From a virus, in the IMG/VR virus record IMGVR_UViG_3300029310_000197, positions 1-5,132 of that record: a stretch of DNA of 5,132 nucleotides; one strand, 5' to 3'. Both the position numbers and the translations under genes were made by a program. The notes under the pieces are model-generated. The model saw only the letters and a list, made by a program, of their open reading frames with translations. It was not told where the DNA came from and did no database searches. Within the stretch, counting starts at the first letter, position 1; each line of letters opens with the position of its first letter. Positions 1 to 5,132 of this stretch are shown here, piece after piece.

Positions 1-99
1 ACCAAAATAAGGATTTGTACCACTCGCAGAAACGTACTTAACTATGTAAGACGAGGAACGTTCTTTCGAACGACATTCCTCTATAGAGGAAAAACCACA
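1..99. repeat. Terminal direct repeat, copy 1 of 2. Identical to 5034-5132. A circular genome was linearised with 99-nt redundancy, so the true unit length is 5033 nt.
   Basis: Read directly: the first 99 nt (accaaaataaggatttgtaccactcgc...ggaaaaaccaca) recur exactly at 5034-5132. The repeat falls inside one continuous minus-strand reading frame. Confidence 0.95.
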
Positions 100-528
100 G
101 TTCCAAATTTTTTTTAAAATACAAGGGAAATACTTAGCATCTACACCATTGACGAAATATAACGCATGGTAATGTGGACGCTTGAATTTACTTTTAACTT
201 TATCCTGATTTTTCGTCTGCGGGCCATACTCAGACGCAAGAAAATATTTGAAAGTCAAATTTAATTTGCGCCGAGTAATAAAAATCCGCAAACGTTTATG
301 AAAAAGTTGTATCATACGTTTAGAAGGATGCACAAGACCAAGAGTCTTAGGCAAATGCTCATCATCAATGGTCAAAGTGACAAAGAAAACTTTATCGGTA
401 GTCTTACATTCCAAAAGGCAACGCTGACGCCAATCGCTTGCTCGATGATTGACGCAATCAATGCACTTTCCGCACGGAACATCATACATTTGGCCATTTT
501 TGGTTATCTGTACAGGAGATATACACAT
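1..528 (-). CDS. Replication initiator (rolling-circle Rep, Microviridae VP4-like), N-terminal part. The ATG is at 528..526 and aa 1-176 are encoded down to base 1. The ORF continues across the circular junction into 5033..4470.
   Basis: Hand translation of the minus strand gives MCISPVQITKNGQMYDVPCGKCIDCVNHRASDWRQRCLLECKTTDKVFFVTLTIDDEHL...KFKRPHYHALYFVNG...SSYIVKYVSASG. RCR motif I (FFVTLTID) is present. So are the HUH motif (PHYHALYF) and the catalytic two-tyrosine motif (YIVKY, cf. phiX174 gene A YVAKYVNK). An N-terminal CGKCxxC cluster matches what I recall for gokushovirus VP4 proteins. An in-frame upstream stop lies at 537..535. The frame is open to base 1 and is in phase with the ORF leaving 5132. 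Confidence 0.9.
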   Translation of the reverse strand, partial: MCISPVQITKNGQMYDVPCGKCIDCVNHRASDWRQRCLLECKTTDKVFFVTLTIDDEHLPKTLGLVHPSKRMIQLFHKRLRIFITRRKLNLTFKYFLASEYGPQTKNQDKVKSKFKRPHYHALYFVNGVDAKYFPCILKKIWNCGFSSIEECRSKERSSSYIVKYVSASGTNPYFG

Positions 529-549
529 GATGCACTATTTTTTAATACA

Positions 550-581
550 CAAAGGTAAATATTATATTTGACATTACCAAT
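550..581 (-). promoter_or_regulatory. Candidate promoter for rep. A Bacteroidetes-type -7 motif TAccTTTG (minus strand, plus coordinates 557..550) has a TTG about 20 nt upstream (580..578) and an A10 UP-like tract. A sigma70-like TATAAT also lies at 566..561.
   Basis: The minus-strand sequence is ...ctactAAAAAAAAAAttggtaatgtcaaaTATAATatTTACCTTTGtgtattaaaaaatagtgcatcATG. The -7 motif matches the Bacteroides TAnnTTTG consensus. It sits about 21 nt upstream of the rep ATG. This is the only sizeable non-coding stretch upstream of rep. Confidence 0.3.
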
Positions 582-596
582 TTTTTTTTTAGTAGC

Positions 597-616
597 TGAC
601 ACAGAGGACTGTGTCA
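597..616. other. Hairpin with an 8-bp perfect stem (tgacacag / ctgtgtca) and a 4-nt loop. It is adjacent to a T10/A10 homopolymer at 581-590 and lies in the rep-upstream intergenic region.
   Basis: Read directly: 597-604 is the reverse complement of 609-616. T10 at 581-590 is the only long homopolymer in the genome. Confidence 0.55.
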
Positions 617-674
617 CTCCGCAATAATTGTCAAGTAAAAGGAGCGGAGCGCCGCTTTATGTAGCGGACGGCAT

Positions 675-729
675 AAAAAAGCCCCCGCGCAAGTTGATAA
701 TCAAAGATTATCAACGATTGCGCGAGGGC
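675..729 (-). terminator. Rho-independent terminator for the VP1-ORF116 transcription unit. It is an imperfect 49-nt palindrome at 681-729 (about 20 bp of stem) followed on the minus strand by a T6 tract at 680..675.
   Basis: Plus-strand 681-690 gcccccgcgc pairs with 720-729 gcgcgagggc, with 1 mismatch. The inner 693-702 gttgataatc pairs perfectly with 706-715 gattatcaac, leaving a 3-nt loop. On the gene (minus) strand the stem ends ...GCGCGGGGGC and is directly followed by TTTTTTAT. Confidence 0.6.
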
Positions 730-763
730 AAACAACCTCAAACTATTCTACTCTATGTTATCA

Positions 764-1114
764 TCAGTTTTTTTCGGTTTTTTGAGGAACGGAAGAATTG
801 TCTGTATCACTGACATCAGACACTGCAGAATTATCTTTAACATCTTGATTATTATTTTGATTATTATTTTGTTGAACATTAACAGTATCATCAAGGACAC
901 CAAGTTCATCTACATTAGGAAAGACATCGGAAAGATCTTGACCATACGCAATATCAGGAACATACGACATCATCGGGTCTTGGCCGGACATAGAAATAGA
1001 AATGATATCCTGGACAGATTTGGACATGTCCGGCATAGTAAGTTGAACACCAGAATTGACTTCATCCACGAAAGAATTTTCACGCGGAAGATAGGGGGAA
1101 CGATACGTACTCAT
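764..1114 (-). CDS. Hypothetical 116-aa acidic protein with an N/Q-rich low-complexity C-terminus. Possibly a scaffolding-like or VP5-like accessory protein.
   Basis: The ATG at 1114..1112 lies 2 nt after the VP1 TAA, which suggests translational coupling. The TGA stop is at 766..764. The product has many D/E/S residues (VDELGVLDDTVNVQQNNNQNNNQDVKDNSAVSDVSDTD). No motif is recognised. A rho-independent terminator follows about 35 nt downstream. Confidence 0.55.
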   Translation of the reverse strand: MSTYRSPYLPRENSFVDEVNSGVQLTMPDMSKSVQDIISISMSGQDPMMSYVPDIAYGQDLSDVFPNVDELGVLDDTVNVQQNNNQNNNQDVKDNSAVSDVSDTDNSSVPQKTEKN

Positions 1115-1116
1115 AA

Positions 1117-2808
1117 TTATAAATGTGGGTCTGCATATTTAGGAATCAAACGGAAAGCTTCAACCTGATTATATATCTGACAGTAAAGAGGATGCGCGAC
1201 ATCAGAAGACACAGCAAGGACATTGTCAACATTAGCATTATCATACGTAATAAATGAAGTATTCAGCATAGGAGCATTTTTGAAAGAACGAGCCATGTGC
1301 CAAAACCGTAAAGAGGAACGGAACTCACCATGTATTTCGTTAGGATTATACCTATATTCAGCATAGCGAGGAGCGTAACCAAATTCTTGATTTGAAAGAG
1401 CATGAACCGAGTTGGAAAGGGACTTATTTCCAAAGAAGTCAAAATAAATTTCTTTGTTACGGATAGCCTGTTCACCGATATTTGCGAACTCAGGCCAATA
1501 ATATTCATCCCAGGATTCACGACAGAACTTGCGCGGAACGCCTTGAAAATAAGCAGACTTAGGCATAACAGACAATATACCAATGAGTTGACCATGTTCT
1601 TCAAAACGGCGAGAGAATGCGAAATTAGACGATGCAGAAGTAGCATTACCAGCGAGCATACCAAGCGGCTCCTGAACAACACCGGACTCAGTAGTCTTAG
1701 AGGCACCAGTTTGTTGAACCTCAGACATAATTAGAGGAGTTTTAAGGCCACAAAGATACTCAGGACGCTGAAGACGAGCATCAGACGAACGGACACCGAA
1801 ATGCGAAAAGATTTGTTCAATATAACGTGAACCGCCAATAGCTTGGCGTTCGAGCCATTCTTGAATTTTGAAAGCGCGACGAAGATCGACAACGGAAGGA
1901 ACAGTTGAAGAAGTAAAACGAACTTTTAGATCTTTGGAATTATCAATGTGAACGTTACTTGAATTGGGAAGCCCTTGATCAGCATCAGACGAATTAGCAA
2001 ACGAAGTAAGAAGATTGCCAACACCATCAGATCCGAGAATACCTTTAGGAGGATCATCCAAGCCATTGGAACCATAAATAGCATTACCAGACGAAGAAGG
2101 ATTATAGTAAACTTCACCAGAACCAAAAGGCAAAGTCACTGGATTAGTGCCATACTGCGGCCAGGGGAGAGCAGAAGTAAAGTAATCATGTATCCAAGCA
2201 CGACGCTGAAGTTGCATGAGACGGAGAGACTCAGTTTTATCAACAGTACCAGAAGCACGTGAAAACTCTATCTCAGCAGTGAGATTTTGGTCACGATAAT
2301 ACTCATTATATATAAGCGCATACGCGCGGAACGGCAGTGCATCAATAGACGAAAGAGTGCCGCCGAAATCCTTAGTAGGAACCTCATTAACAGTAGGAAA
2401 ACCAAAGTAGTCATAAAGACTTCCAGGGGATATTTCAGAAGGAATATCCCTCATATCGTTGTAAGGACCATTAGGAATAGAAACCTGCAAAGACGGACGG
2501 ACGGGTAGGACAGCAGAACCAGGCTTTTTTACATTTGAAATGAAGTCTTGGAAATCATCCCATACAAGACGATTAGGTACGAAGAAATAATGCATGTACA
2601 CATCTACCTGCTGCATGAGTGGAGCCAAGGTGGGAGCCATACGAATAAGATGTTTTTGGCCAACCTTGAAGGCATCACCAGGTAAAACCTCCTGATGAAA
2701 AAACGGTATAAGTTGACCGAACTTCGCAGTAAGGCGATTTTCATAAGAAAGGTCAAAACTTGAGCCAGAAGGCTTAGTAAGACGAATTGAATTAAATATA
2801 TTAGCCAT
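1117..2808 (-). CDS. Major capsid protein (Microviridae VP1 / phiX174 F homologue, gokushovirus-type), 563 aa.
   Basis: The ATG is at 2808..2806 and the TAA at 1119..1117. The N-terminal region (SFDLSYENRLTAKFGQLIPFFHQEVLPGDAFKVGQKHLIRMAPTLAPLMQQVDVYMHYFFVPNRLVW) closely follows the conserved N-terminal pattern of gokushovirus VP1 as I remember it (Chp2/SpV4: SFDRS...L.P.F..EVLPGD.F......R.A.P.L.......Y.FFVP.RL.W). The 563-aa size is typical for Gokushovirinae VP1. An internal G/S/N-rich stretch matches the known variable surface-loop insertion. Confidence 0.93.
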   Translation of the reverse strand: MANIFNSIRLTKPSGSSFDLSYENRLTAKFGQLIPFFHQEVLPGDAFKVGQKHLIRMAPTLAPLMQQVDVYMHYFFVPNRLVWDDFQDFISNVKKPGSAVLPVRPSLQVSIPNGPYNDMRDIPSEISPGSLYDYFGFPTVNEVPTKDFGGTLSSIDALPFRAYALIYNEYYRDQNLTAEIEFSRASGTVDKTESLRLMQLQRRAWIHDYFTSALPWPQYGTNPVTLPFGSGEVYYNPSSSGNAIYGSNGLDDPPKGILGSDGVGNLLTSFANSSDADQGLPNSSNVHIDNSKDLKVRFTSSTVPSVVDLRRAFKIQEWLERQAIGGSRYIEQIFSHFGVRSSDARLQRPEYLCGLKTPLIMSEVQQTGASKTTESGVVQEPLGMLAGNATSASSNFAFSRRFEEHGQLIGILSVMPKSAYFQGVPRKFCRESWDEYYWPEFANIGEQAIRNKEIYFDFFGNKSLSNSVHALSNQEFGYAPRYAEYRYNPNEIHGEFRSSLRFWHMARSFKNAPMLNTSFITYDNANVDNVLAVSSDVAHPLYCQIYNQVEAFRLIPKYADPHL

Positions 2809-2822
2809 TAATTTTGATTTAG

Positions 2823-2848
2823 GTGTGCAGCGCTAACGCGCTGCACAC
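2823..2848. other. Perfect GC-rich hairpin, an 11-bp stem (gtgtgcagcgc / gcgctgcacac) with a 4-nt loop (taac). It lies in the 214-nt intergenic region upstream of VP1.
   Basis: Read directly: 2823-2833 is the exact reverse complement of 2838-2848. It is a GC island in an AT-rich genome. No U/T tract follows on either strand, so it is not a canonical intrinsic terminator. Confidence 0.7.
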
Positions 2849-2950
2849 AATTAATAAGGTTAGGACATTTTTTAAACTATCAAAACGAAAAAGATCATAA
2901 ATGAAAAACACGAAAATCAAAGATGATCAATAGCAATTTGAAAGTTAAAT

Positions 2951-3016
2951 TTACAGGCGAATACCACCACGCGGCATGATATAGGTAGTGGAACGCTTAC
3001 CAGAATTTTTTTTCAT
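2951..3016 (-). CDS. Candidate micro-ORF of 21 aa, MKKNSGKRSTTYIMPRGGIRL. It has net charge about +6 and no acidic residues. Possibly a J/ORF8-like small DNA-binding packaging protein.
   Basis: An ATG at 3016..3014 leads to a TAA at 2953..2951. It sits directly after the ORF122 stop, in the same frame 6 nt downstream, and before the VP1 gene. This is the position where phiX174 has J before F, and where gokushoviruses carry a small basic ORF8 after VP3. It is very short, so it could be chance. Confidence 0.2.
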   Translation of the reverse strand: MKKNSGKRSTTYIMPRGGIRL

Positions 3017-3022
3017 AAGCAG

Positions 3023-3391
3023 TCATTTATTTTTATGTGAAACATCATCGAGAACTTGATTAAGCAAAGAGTCAATAAAATCCTCATCAGTGCGAACACG
3101 AGATTTAAAACACAAACGCTCGATATAAAGACAGATACGAGTAAGATCAGACGTTTTAAGATAACCCAAAGATTTGTGTAAACGAGAAACACATTTATTA
3201 TAGGCAATCAAACGCTCAGGAAAGGAAGGACAGACAGCAGTATTTGCGTAGAAACGCTTCCAAAACAAATCAGGAAGAATGTCCATAACGAAGTAAAGTT
3301 GCTTTAACGAAAGAGTGTCAAGAAGATTATATACCTTATCATAATCGAAAAGGCAAACATCATCTGAATTAGGAGATTTCTTATTATTCAT
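3023..3391 (-). CDS. Hypothetical 122-aa protein in the VP3 (internal scaffolding) position, immediately downstream of VP2.
   Basis: The ATG at 3391..3389 lies 5 nt after the VP2 TAA at 3399..3397. The frame is same-strand and tightly coupled, with coding-like composition and a TGA stop at 3025..3023. No motif is recognised. The VP3 assignment is positional only. Confidence 0.55.
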   Translation of the reverse strand: MNNKKSPNSDDVCLFDYDKVYNLLDTLSLKQLYFVMDILPDLFWKRFYANTAVCPSFPERLIAYNKCVSRLHKSLGYLKTSDLTRICLYIERLCFKSRVRTDEDFIDSLLNQVLDDVSHKNK

Positions 3392-3396
3392 AACAT

Positions 3397-4464
3397 TTAA
3401 TATTTTTGAGAACGAAGTTTTAATTCATGCCTGGCATCCTTATCGACATCATCCAAATCACCAGTAATAAGAGCACCAGTCTTAAGACCTTGTGAGAACA
3501 TATCCGAACCATACATATCAGTATAAGCCTTGACAAAGCCGAACAAGTCCAATATTTCATATTGACGCTGTGCAGTCATTGCCTGAAAATGACGATTTTG
3601 GAGAATATCCAACATAGAAGCATTAGCTAACTTATACTCACTAATTTTTAATTGAGTACAAGCATCATCAAGAGCATTCTGATACTTTACACGAAGTGTA
3701 CTTGTGGCTGAATTTTGTGCATTTGTGGCAGCATTTTGCGCATTTGCATTTGCATTCACACGATTTGCGTAAGTTTGAGACCGAAGATTTTCGAGATATG
3801 CGGGGAAAGCTTCAATTTTCAATGCGAGTTCATCAGCTTGCTTACCAGAGAGCCGAGTTTGCGCGGCTATTAAATCACCTTGCTTTTGAGCATTATAGTA
3901 CTCTTGAACTTTCAAATCAATATCTTTACCTTGAATAGTGACAATATTTTTTTGCTGCTGCAAGATAATAGGCCATTGTTCAAGACTGAATTTTGTTAAA
4001 CCATTCTGATAAGACACACGAGAATTGAGAGTATCGCGAAGATACTGAGTGTCGAGGGCTTTATTAGCAATGAGTGCTAAGTCCAATTGATTTTGTGTTT
4101 CCTGTCTACGAACTTGAGACCGAGCTAGTTTCATACTCGTAACAGCAGAAACACCCTTAAACATACTATCAGAATAATCGACAGGTGCGACAGTACCAAG
4201 CGAAGTAGACGTATTATTTGAAGAATTGCCAGAAACACCATTACCATAAACGAGGTTAGGATTAAGTCCAGCAGCCTGAAGACGTTGCATCTGCGCTGTG
4301 GGAGCGTTATACTCGTTCTGTTTATTCCAAAGGTCGAGATTTTGCTGATACTGCAGCTGCATAAGTTTTTTTGTATAGTTATAATTTTGTCGTTGAGAAA
4401 TGGCAGATCCAATCATGCCAATGCCAGCGCCGATAGCGCCTTCAGCAATAGAAGCCCAGTTCAT
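3397..4464 (-). CDS. Minor capsid / DNA pilot protein (Microviridae VP2-like; functional analogue of phiX174 H), 355 aa.
   Basis: The ATG at 4464..4462 lies 5 nt after the rep stop. The N-terminus is glycine-rich and hydrophobic (ASIAEGAIGAGIGMIGSAIS, glycine-zipper-like). A long Q/N/A-rich predicted helical, coiled-coil-like central part follows (ANRVNANANAQNAATNAQN). Size and position relative to rep and the capsid gene are typical of gokushovirus VP2. Homology was not verified by search. Confidence 0.75.
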   Translation of the reverse strand: MNWASIAEGAIGAGIGMIGSAISQRQNYNYTKKLMQLQYQQNLDLWNKQNEYNAPTAQMQRLQAAGLNPNLVYGNGVSGNSSNNTSTSLGTVAPVDYSDSMFKGVSAVTSMKLARSQVRRQETQNQLDLALIANKALDTQYLRDTLNSRVSYQNGLTKFSLEQWPIILQQQKNIVTIQGKDIDLKVQEYYNAQKQGDLIAAQTRLSGKQADELALKIEAFPAYLENLRSQTYANRVNANANAQNAATNAQNSATSTLRVKYQNALDDACTQLKISEYKLANASMLDILQNRHFQAMTAQRQYEILDLFGFVKAYTDMYGSDMFSQGLKTGALITGDLDDVDKDARHELKLRSQKY

Positions 4465-4469
4465 ATTAT

Positions 4470-5132
4470 CTAACTATAAATTTGTGAAAGGTATTGCAAA
4501 TCATTTCGCAAACGCTTCTTGTCAAATGATTTATAAAACTCCTGAAGGACATGGCACTGGGCTTCCTTCCACTCAGAACGTAAAGAACGTTCAGACTCAG
4601 AAAGATTATAATCTGATACAATGAAAGAACAACGACGATAGGCATTGCGAAGCAAAGAATATATAGGAGATACACACTCAGAAAAAGTACGCGTAGGAGC
4701 ATCAAAAGTATACTCCTTAGAAATCGGAATATTAAAAAGAATAGTCTCATATGGAGAAAACAAATTAAAGAAAAGTTTGACGTAGTCGATATCTTGGAAA
4801 TCAGAAGAAAGAACTTGTTTGATAATCCGTACTATGTTAACATTTTGAGAACGTAGAAACTTTATAATTTCAGCAAGATTTTTTTTAAAACGAGGGGCTA
4901 AAACTTCCTGAAAATACTTTTTACCAATAGAAGTACTATGTAAACAAAAAGTATTATAAGTACGAGCATCAAAAAAAGCTGAAAAGGACGAGCGCTCAGA
5001 ATAGCTAACATAATCATCAAATTTTAATTCATTACCAAAATAAGGATTTGTACCACTCGCAGAAACGTACTTAACTATGTAAGACGAGGAACGTTCTTTC
5101 GAACGACATTCCTCTATAGAGGAAAAACCACA
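4470..5132 (-). CDS. Replication initiator (VP4-like), C-terminal part. 4470..5033 is unique (aa 177-363 plus a TAG stop at 4472..4470). 5034..5132 duplicates aa 144-176 already encoded at 1..99. The full protein is 363 aa.
   Basis: There is no stop in this minus frame from 5132 down to the TAG at 4472..4470. The frame is continuous with codons 102..100 at the window start. The 97-aa track ORF 4470..4763 is just the tail of this frame, beginning at an internal TTG (plus 4761-4763 = caa). Confidence 0.9.
   Translation of the reverse strand, partial: CGFSSIEECRSKERSSSYIVKYVSASGTNPYFGNELKFDDYVSYSERSSFSAFFDARTYNTFCLHSTSIGKKYFQEVLAPRFKKNLAEIIKFLRSQNVNIVRIIKQVLSSDFQDIDYVKLFFNLFSPYETILFNIPISKEYTFDAPTRTFSECVSPIYSLLRNAYRRCSFIVSDYNLSESERSLRSEWKEAQCHVLQEFYKSFDKKRLRNDLQYLSQIYS
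5034..5132. repeat. Terminal direct repeat, copy 2 of 2. Identical to 1-99.
   Basis: Exact 99/99 identity with the window start. Confidence 0.95.

Follow-up and report, generated by a model that had tools for sequence, protein, structure and literature searches.

A covarying hairpin between a J-like open reading frame and the major capsid gene in a clade of Microviridae

A perfect 11-bp GC-rich hairpin lies directly before the gene of the major capsid protein VP1 in a stretch of viral DNA of 5,132 nucleotides (nt), which comprises positions 1 to 5,132 of IMG/VR record IMGVR_UViG_3300029310_000197 (hereafter, the window). The stem of this hairpin is kept by strong selection for pairing. It is suggested, with a probability of roughly 45%, that the hairpin acts mainly in the mRNA as an intercistronic boundary, a counterpart of the T_J hairpin that precedes the capsid gene of phiX174 and other Bullavirinae. 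The hairpin and its immediate surroundings, with lengths of proteins and open reading frames (ORFs) in amino acids (aa), are as follows.

2823..2848, minus strand: hairpin, reading GTGTGCAGCGC-GTTA-GCGCTGCACAC on the coding strand, with a perfect 11-bp stem and a 4-nt loop
2848-2838, 2837-2834 and 2833-2823, minus strand: 5′ arm, loop and 3′ arm of the hairpin, respectively, on the coding strand
2809..2822, minus strand: A-rich, unstructured spacer of 14 nt (CTAAATCAAAATTA) from the stem to the VP1 ATG
1117..2808, minus strand: major capsid protein VP1 (563 aa; PF02305, E = 1.4e-107; phrog_514), the first gene 3′ of the hairpin
2856..2868, minus strand: conserved 5′ flank ATGTCCTAACCTT, 7 nt upstream of the stem and nearly invariant in the clade
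2874..2950, minus strand: AT-rich insertion of 77 nt, present only in the window and in its identical copy L081
3016..2951, minus strand: J-like ORF, 21 aa and basic (MKKNSGKRSTTYIMPRGGIRL, then the stop codon), conserved in both clades of relatives and absent from the program-made ORF list

Structure and conservation of the hairpin

On the plus strand, positions 2823-2848 read GTGTGCAGCGC-taac-GCGCTGCACAC. Of 2,000 Markov-1 random genomes of the same composition, 0.9% contained a perfect stem of 11 bp or more enclosing 3-8 nt. Folding of the 30-nt hairpin segment gave free energies of -15.7 kcal/mol (z = -6.7) for DNA and -22.9 kcal/mol (z = -6.3) for RNA. The hairpin is situated between the J-like ORF and VP1, beginning 102 nt past the stop codon of the former, and its stem ends 14 nt before the ATG of the latter (2808). 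No T tract directly follows the stem on either strand: the coding strand continues as CTAAATCAAAATTAATG, and on the plus strand a T6 run is reached only about 20 nt on. The site was not called in a terminator scan and, as the stem leads into CTAAATCAAAATTA with no immediate U/T tract, a canonical intrinsic terminator was rejected. A sigma-70 promoter scan gave matches at chance number, none of them close to the hairpin. The Rfam scan returned nothing at the hairpin; its sole match, to U12 small nuclear RNA (3579-3721, plus strand), lies inside the gene of the pilot protein VP2 on the non-coding strand and was taken as a chance hit (score 26.5 bits, gathering score 53, E = 0.026).

VP1 served to search IMG/VR, metagenome contigs and a large protein collection, with contig look-ups to follow; the relatives found fell into two groups. 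Group A consists of L001, L082, L168-L176 and L219-L221, together with L081, and its members are 81-95% identical to the window in VP1 protein and 73-87% in VP1 DNA. The hairpin was identified in the same place in every member of this group, always with 11 bp and a 4-nt loop, giving 12 distinct genomes that possess it (the window and 11 further relatives). Covariation was measured on an alignment of ten sequences, in which 110 of 110 pair cells are Watson-Crick and two pairs have changed on both sides; intact stems are also seen in L219 and L220, two more distinct sequences. Sliding the partner columns by one to three positions as a control destroyed the pairing. Beside GTGTGCAGCGC/GCGCTGCACAC, the stem occurs as GTGCGCAGCGC/GCGCTGCGCAC, where pair 4 is changed from T:A to C:G, and as GTGCGCACCGC/GCGGTGCGCAC, where pair 8 is changed from G:C to C:G as well; these two double substitutions are the only stem changes in the 12 distinct genomes. 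Symmetric double changes of this kind favour pairing over base-specific recognition by a protein. The loops seen are GTTA, GCCA, GTCA and TTCA, and a G-N-N-A rule for the loop on the coding strand was abandoned on account of the last of these, found in L219. On average, two sequences differ by 0.063 in the stem, where every difference is compensatory; the corresponding values are 0.239 for the loop and 0.236 for VP1, in which 93% of the third-codon columns vary. The state of pair 4 is discordant with VP1 similarity (C:G in L168, with 87% DNA identity; T:A in L172, with 77%), which implies either repeated change or transfer by recombination.

An earlier, sequence-only reading of this DNA had described the perfect GC-rich stem, placed it upstream of the capsid gene and held a simple terminator to be unlikely; the present analysis bears it out on each of these points. 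It had further named conservation with compensatory changes in related genomes as a check, and both are seen within the clade of 81-95% VP1 identity. The intergenic setting that it gave is right for the hairpin itself, but the region is shorter than was supposed, with the J-like ORF filling 3016..2951.

This ORF was revealed by comparison with the relatives. Its C-terminus, ending in GKRTTTYVVPRGGIRL before the stop (TTY[IVL][MV]PRGGIRL), is kept in both clades, and a PHROG profile search with the basic ORF of 21-25 aa gave no match. Its size, charge and position make a role as a J-like DNA-packaging protein probable.

Across the relatives, the spacer between stem and ATG measures 13-18 nt, is always A-rich and is without a Shine-Dalgarno sequence. 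The conserved 5′ flank has the variant form ATGTACCAACCGC in L174. In the clade members that are free of the 77-nt insertion, AAAAAATGTCCTAACC comes almost directly after the J-like stop codon. In the window only, the helix can be extended by pairing of UUAUUAAUU, upstream of the stem, with AAUUAAUGG over the VP1 start (2807-2816 with 2846-2855); the relatives cannot form this helix, and it was rejected as a conserved feature. A mini-ORF (ATG-TCC-TAA) in the conserved flank was also discarded, its length being variable (six codons in L082, reading through the hairpin in L174). In L174 (7900-8000) and L175 (1650-1748) an insert of about 90 nt lies between the hairpin and VP1. It opens with an ATG and about 20 codons like the VP1 N-terminus (beginning MSNPFNEIKHPDAPMHRFF), out of frame with the real VP1, and has the look of a scar from a recombination that spared the hairpin, the leader and the start codon.

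Group B, a sister clade composed of L083 and L177-L180 (VP1 protein 62-65% identical), has no hairpin before VP1 despite an equal gene order and the presence of the J-like ORF. Here the J-like stop codon precedes either the VP1 ATG, at a distance of about 14 nt, or an additional ORF of about 60 aa. The Rep protein of this group is homologous (PF23343 where a complete gene was scored). No equivalent hairpin was found before VP1 in 80 IMG/VR relatives with 40-45% VP1 identity, among which freshwater lineages have a few unrelated hairpins of 7-8 bp about 59 nt upstream of VP1. Six freshwater-type genomes (L037, L039, L068, L070, L075 and L076) illustrate these, with an 8-bp hairpin about 59 nt before the VP1 ATG, ACCT(T/A)CCC-ttcg-GGG(A/T)AGGT, which has a UUCG-type loop and one compensatory change between its variants. 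Searching IMG/VR for the hairpin as a pattern gave 0 matches with the exact pattern and, with a degenerate one, only one relative that had already been found. Whole-genome megablast against GenBank phages recovered short VP1 fragments only and no close relative, GTDB genomes searched with VP1 yielded distant relatives only (at most 44% identity), none with the hairpin, and the bacterial sequence flanking the prophages described below contained no copy of the hairpin. Its presence in one clade and absence from the sister clade and distant relatives points to a clade-specific insertion.

Two GC-rich hairpins, AGCCGCGC-ggctaa-GCGCGGCT and AGGCAGCGC-ggccaa-GCGCTGCCT, were observed upstream of rep in L083 (4523-4585). 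The second has the core GCAGCGC...GCGCTGC in common with the hairpin before VP1, and for this reason such palindromes may move between intergenic regions.

A proposed T_J-like boundary and its alternatives

The first and last 99 nt of the window are identical (1-99 = 5034-5132, an exact repeat), so that the source is a circular Microviridae genome, 5,033 nt long, whose ends overlap in the assembly. The convincing genes are all on the minus strand. Virion strand and mRNA are of the same sense in Microviridae, and the minus strand of the window was taken as the virion strand on this basis. The rep ORF is missing from the ORF list because it crosses the circular junction. Besides VP1 and the J-like ORF, the transcription map contains the following elements.

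550..580, minus strand: Bacteroidetes-type promoter TTGG-N19-TACCTTTG, ending 21 nt before the rep ATG (528)
528 across the junction to 4470, minus strand: Rep/VP4 (363 aa; PF23343, phrog_942)
4464..3397, minus strand: VP2 pilot protein (phrog_8689)
3391..3023, minus strand: ORF122, without a family match
1114..764, minus strand: ORF116, without a family match
675..729, minus strand: operon terminator after ORF116, a nested GC-rich hairpin (729-681) followed by T6 (680-675)

The Bacteroidetes promoter consensus is TTTG-N19-21-TAnnTTTG. The TACCTTTG box of the window (557-550), with TTGG 19 nt upstream, is the only positionally conserved promoter box, and a TAnnTTTG box occurs at the same place in L168, L170, L172 and L173. 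Upstream of VP1 no TAnnTTTG box is conserved; the near-match of the window at this location, TAATTGTG, is replaced in the relatives. The element at 675-729 looks like the canonical intrinsic terminator of the operon. Its hairpin, GCCCTCGCGCAA..GTTGATAATC-ttt-GATTATCAAC..TTGCGCGGGGGC, is kept as a structure in the relatives with differing inner-stem sequences. Given genes on one strand, one conserved promoter upstream of rep, one terminator after ORF116 and no conserved promoter box before VP1, the hairpin is most likely internal to the mRNA.

It is proposed that a single polycistronic transcript would carry rep, VP2, ORF122, the J-like ORF, the hairpin, VP1 and ORF116, in this order, and that a stable RNA stem (-22.9 kcal/mol) would form in it 14 nt upstream of the capsid start codon. 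This stem may stop a fraction of the RNA polymerases; it may block exonucleases, which would give the mRNA segments on either side different half-lives; or it may keep the A-rich translation-initiation region of VP1 clear of competing structure. Action at the level of RNA, like the dominance of any one of these three effects, is something that we infer.

The likeness to the J-F hairpin of phiX174, to which attention had been drawn from the sequence alone, proved to be the closest match, with the same position, a GC-rich stem, a tetraloop and a similar distance to the ATG (about 15 nt). Read directly, this region of phiX174 is TAA(J)-ttgc-AGGGGC-ttcg-GCCCCT-16 nt-ATG(F), while that of G4 contains GTGGGAC-cgcg-GTCCCAC 19 nt before the ATG of F and that of alpha3 GGCCC-ttcg-GGGCC 16 nt before it; the three stems differ in sequence and that of phiX174 is without a real T tract. 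T_J is described as a leaky rho-independent terminator with an efficiency of about 32-60%; transcripts ending at it are the most stable ones, and its disruption speeds mRNA decay (PMC3335065, PMC11527146). Like the hairpin of the window, T_J lies on the coding strand between the gene of a small basic DNA-binding protein and that of the major capsid protein, 15-19 nt before the capsid ATG, and consists of a perfect GC-rich stem with a 4-nt loop and a weak or absent T tract, the structure being conserved while the stem sequence varies between lineages. The two differ in stem length (11 bp here, about twice as stable, against 5-7 bp in T_J), in host (Bacteroidales as opposed to E. coli) and in distribution, the present hairpin being confined to one sub-clade. 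Moreover, in phiX174 T_J follows the strong promoter P_D, whereas no strong promoter is known just upstream of the hairpin studied here. No sequence similarity exists between its stem and the T_J stems of Bullavirinae. As the sister clade is without the hairpin and sequence homology is missing, it is analogous, not homologous, to T_J and arose independently.

Stabiliser hairpins of the repetitive extragenic palindrome (REP) type, such as those of malE-malF, pap and puf, are likewise stable, lie between the cistrons of operons and could set different half-lives. In contrast to them, the present hairpin occurs once in each genome and was not seen in the bacterial DNA beside the prophages, and is thus no dispersed host repeat. 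That the sister clade does without the hairpin indicates that it is dispensable there, and speaks for a tuning element more than for a signal essential to replication.

Several points weigh against a T_J-like role. Since virion strand and mRNA agree in sense, whatever the sequence says in favour of an RNA hairpin applies equally to a hairpin in virion single-stranded DNA (ssDNA); confidence is limited because the sequence does not separate the two, and no G-U wobble pair was seen that would mark the selected strand or molecule. A terminator before the protein needed most seems counterproductive with the sole recognised promoter far upstream. The host probably needs a T run for efficient termination, judging by the T6 of the genome's own end-of-operon terminator. 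Finally, the conserved flank ATGTCCTAACCTT is left unexplained by a T_J-like boundary.

The same structure in the virion strand could serve as an accessory origin of the complementary strand, with the hairpin persisting in ssDNA coated by single-stranded DNA-binding protein and acting as the entry point of host primase, the PriA primosome or RNA polymerase; this is held to be possible, if unlikely. The hairpin is of virion sense and very stable as DNA (-15.7 kcal/mol, z = -6.7), and the flank ATGTCCTAACCTT could belong to a recognition site. It resembles hairpin I of G4 and the n'/PriA site of phiX174 (F-G region) in being a stable, intergenic virion-strand hairpin beside a capsid gene. The annotated G4 origin is also a GC-rich hairpin, with a GAAA loop, in the intergenic region flanking F, so that the G..A form of the loop is shared too. 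The primosome site of phiX174 appears to be a longer hairpin region, however, and the G4 origin region has several inverted repeats as opposed to a single short perfect hairpin. In G4 a CTG start site lies directly 3′ of hairpin I; 3′ of the present stem the flank varies, reading CTA in most genomes but not in L170 and L219. Minus-strand origins vary even among coliphage microviruses, which makes a clade-specific one conceivable, and for conserved, covarying intergenic hairpins of other Microviridae a role as primosome sites has been put forward, though not proven (PMC9865509). Against this, the sister clade does without the hairpin although its gene order is the same and its hosts are presumably of the same kind, and several covarying hairpins upstream of rep, common to both clades, could fill the essential role. 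In a related form, a recently acquired, clade-specific signal of virion ssDNA, for example a second, host-adapted priming entry site, would have been gained as an insertion of about 50 nt including ATGTCCTAACCTT; this is to be thought unlikely in much the same degree. If true, no complementary-strand origin would have been defined earlier outside the coliphage microviruses, and an origin would have been gained within one small clade.

A rather improbable alternative is an element of translation, in which the GC stem, as a standby or insulator, would shield the A-rich VP1 start devoid of a Shine-Dalgarno sequence and uncouple VP1 from the J-like ORF. Translation initiation in Bacteroidetes depends on unstructured A-rich leaders. 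The distance from stem to ATG is constant at 13-18 nt with an A-rich, unstructured spacer, whether the ATG is that of VP1 or of the VP1-like remnant in L174/L175, and in these two loci the hairpin stayed with the remnant start after recombination, hairpin, leader and start behaving as a unit. The VP1 of the sister clade nevertheless manages with a 14-nt spacer straight after the J-like stop and no hairpin, and this alternative overlaps with a T_J-like role without excluding it. That the palindrome is a functionless passenger inherited by descent has little probability: it is restricted to one narrow clade, absent from the sister clade, and adjoins variable insertions (77 nt in the window, about 90 nt with the VP1 remnant in L174), but the stem has diverged at about a quarter of the rate of VP1 overall and by compensatory changes only, while loop and immediate flanks drift, and the pair-4 variants that depart from VP1 similarity imply repeated change or recombination under constraint. 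Very improbable, too, is an operator in double-stranded DNA (replicative form or prophage) for a dimeric regulator of the structural genes from host or phage. A perfect 26-bp palindrome directly before the main structural gene would suit such a site, as would the temperate nature of a lineage with prophages, yet no repressor was identified in it; ORF122 and ORF116 are without an assigned function. Both stem changes are symmetric double substitutions that keep the pairing and alter the bases that a protein would read, the hairpin overlaps no recognisable promoter, and the sister clade, which is temperate as well (prophage L178 included), has no such site.

Candidate viral-strand origins and the region upstream of rep

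The sequence-only reading had also considered an ssDNA origin or Rep-nicking signal at the hairpin, in which the stem would present the nick site beside an AT-rich spacer like that of phiX174. The motif in question is the following.

2850-2857, plus strand (non-coding and non-virion): ATTAATAA, at chance level and not conserved

The motif does lie beside the hairpin and the same string is found in the phiX174 origin (CAACTTGATATTAATAAC), but its significance did not hold up: one match was found in the window against 0.76 expected, 103 of 200 shuffles contained at least one, it is on the non-virion strand, and in relatives the coding strand reads TTTTTAAC, TTTTTCCC, TTTTAATC or others at this site. 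The phiX174 origin, read directly as CCCCCAACTTG^ATATTAATAAC with the annotated nick at 4306 (CAACTTG^ATATTAATAACACTATAGACCAC, inside gene A), shares with the hairpin site only this 8-mer, on the opposite strand; it is not itself a hairpin, and no CAACTTG-like nick context occurs within 2800-2900. Nicking in hairpin loops is common among HUH Rep proteins, and the origins of circular Rep-encoding single-stranded (CRESS) DNA viruses and rolling-circle plasmids resemble the present case in having a GC-rich stem in a circular, Rep-encoding ssDNA genome. Their loops, however, are of 9-13 nt with an invariant nick motif, whereas the loop here has just 4 nt and varies (GTTA, GCCA, GTCA, TTCA), displaying no constant nick motif. 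With a homologous Rep but no hairpin in the sister clade (L083, L177-L180), and with a better candidate stem-loop common to both clades upstream of rep, a viral-strand origin at the hairpin is extremely improbable; the site was ruled out as the Rep origin on the wrong strand of the motif, the variable 4-nt loop and the absence of the hairpin from Group B.

The better candidate is located in the intergenic region upstream of rep (763..529), where two adjoining elements were identified.

617-649, minus strand: candidate origin stem-loop, with the stem CTCCGC (649-644)/GCGGAG (622-617) and a 21-nt loop containing the invariant ACTTGACAATWATT
616-597, minus strand: hairpin TGACACAG-N4-CTGTGTCA, immediately 3′ of the candidate origin stem

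The final 14 nt of the 21-nt loop (ACTTGACAAT(T/A)ATT) and the first two bases of the stem that follows (GC) make up a 16-mer at 636-621 (ACTTGACAATTATTGC). This 16-mer does not vary and was found a single time on the coding strand in each of the 16 loci of both groups that cover the region; ACTTGACAATWATTGC is present in all 16. The likeness to the phiX174 nick context that is lacking at the hairpin is found here instead, where ACTTGA in the loop corresponds to AACTTG^A; by analogy with phiX174, a cut is predicted between G632 and A631 (ACTTG^ACAAT). The stem covaries (CTCCGC/GCGGAG, TTCCGC/GCGGAA, CTCAGC/GCTGAG, CTTCGC/GCGAAG and TCTGGC/GCCAGA), with compensatory changes in four of its six pairs. 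The adjoining hairpin is present in both clades with compensatory changes as well (..CAC/GTG.., ..CGC/GCG.., ..CAA/TTG..), its loop being expanded to about 25-30 nt in the sister clade, and the two stems taken together are 99.4% paired with six pairs changed on both sides. A 21-nt loop of which the last 14 nt are invariant fits the pattern of CRESS viruses and plasmids much better than does the hairpin before VP1, and the stem-loop at 617-649 is put forward as the best candidate for the Rep nick site, a proposal that we infer from sequence comparison. A CAACTTG heptamer also occurs within the terminator stem (696-690, minus strand) but was not retained as the origin, since it is not conserved in L082 or L169 and about 0.6 occurrences are expected by chance.

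Host, integration and significance

Prophages were recognised within bacterial contigs in both clades (L082, L169, L174, L176, L178 and L220). They neighbour the same host genes (TP_methylase, PAD_porph and HtpG), and the flanking HtpG is about 100% identical to a protein labelled 'Bacteroidales bacterium' by its source. Repeats like dif that flank the proviruses of Bacteroidetes microviruses, indicative of Xer/dif-type integration, have already been published (PMC3091885). The bacterial contigs with prophages, the HtpG match and dif-like flanking repeats support Bacteroidales as the host. The repeat at the prophage junctions reads TTAACATA(A/G)TACGGATTATC(A/G)AAC, and a corresponding sequence was located in the window.

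4817-4840, minus strand: dif-like attachment sequence TTAACATAGTACGGATTATCAAAC, inside the rep ORF

This sequence is identical or nearly so to the repeats flanking the L082 prophage (2205-2234 and 7166-7195, with a spacing of 4,961 nt). Since the junction repeat matches a sequence in rep, the attachment site is placed in this gene, which integration would split. The hairpin itself was rejected as a dif-like Xer site, which would have two 11-bp arms on either side of a 6-8-bp spacer and match the prophage junctions; it has nothing in common with the junction repeat at 4817-4840. Also set aside was GGTGCGCA, the reverse of the 3′ arm in some relatives, as the XerC arm of E. coli dif; the arms of the junction repeat are quite different.

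The main value of the analysis is a negative one, in that the site before VP1 is excluded as the Rep origin and the question of the origin is redirected to the stem-loop with ACTTGACAATWATT upstream of rep. By-products are an operon map with one promoter and one terminator, the dif-like attachment site in rep and a Bacteroidales host. Among Microviridae, intergenic hairpins that are conserved and covary have been described before; what is new is an independent example between a J-like gene and the capsid gene in a temperate Bacteroidales lineage. Gut Bacteroidales microviruses would thus have independently evolved a phiX174-like order of a small basic protein gene, a stable hairpin and the capsid gene, which suggests a general need to separate the expression of the capsid gene from that of the genes upstream.

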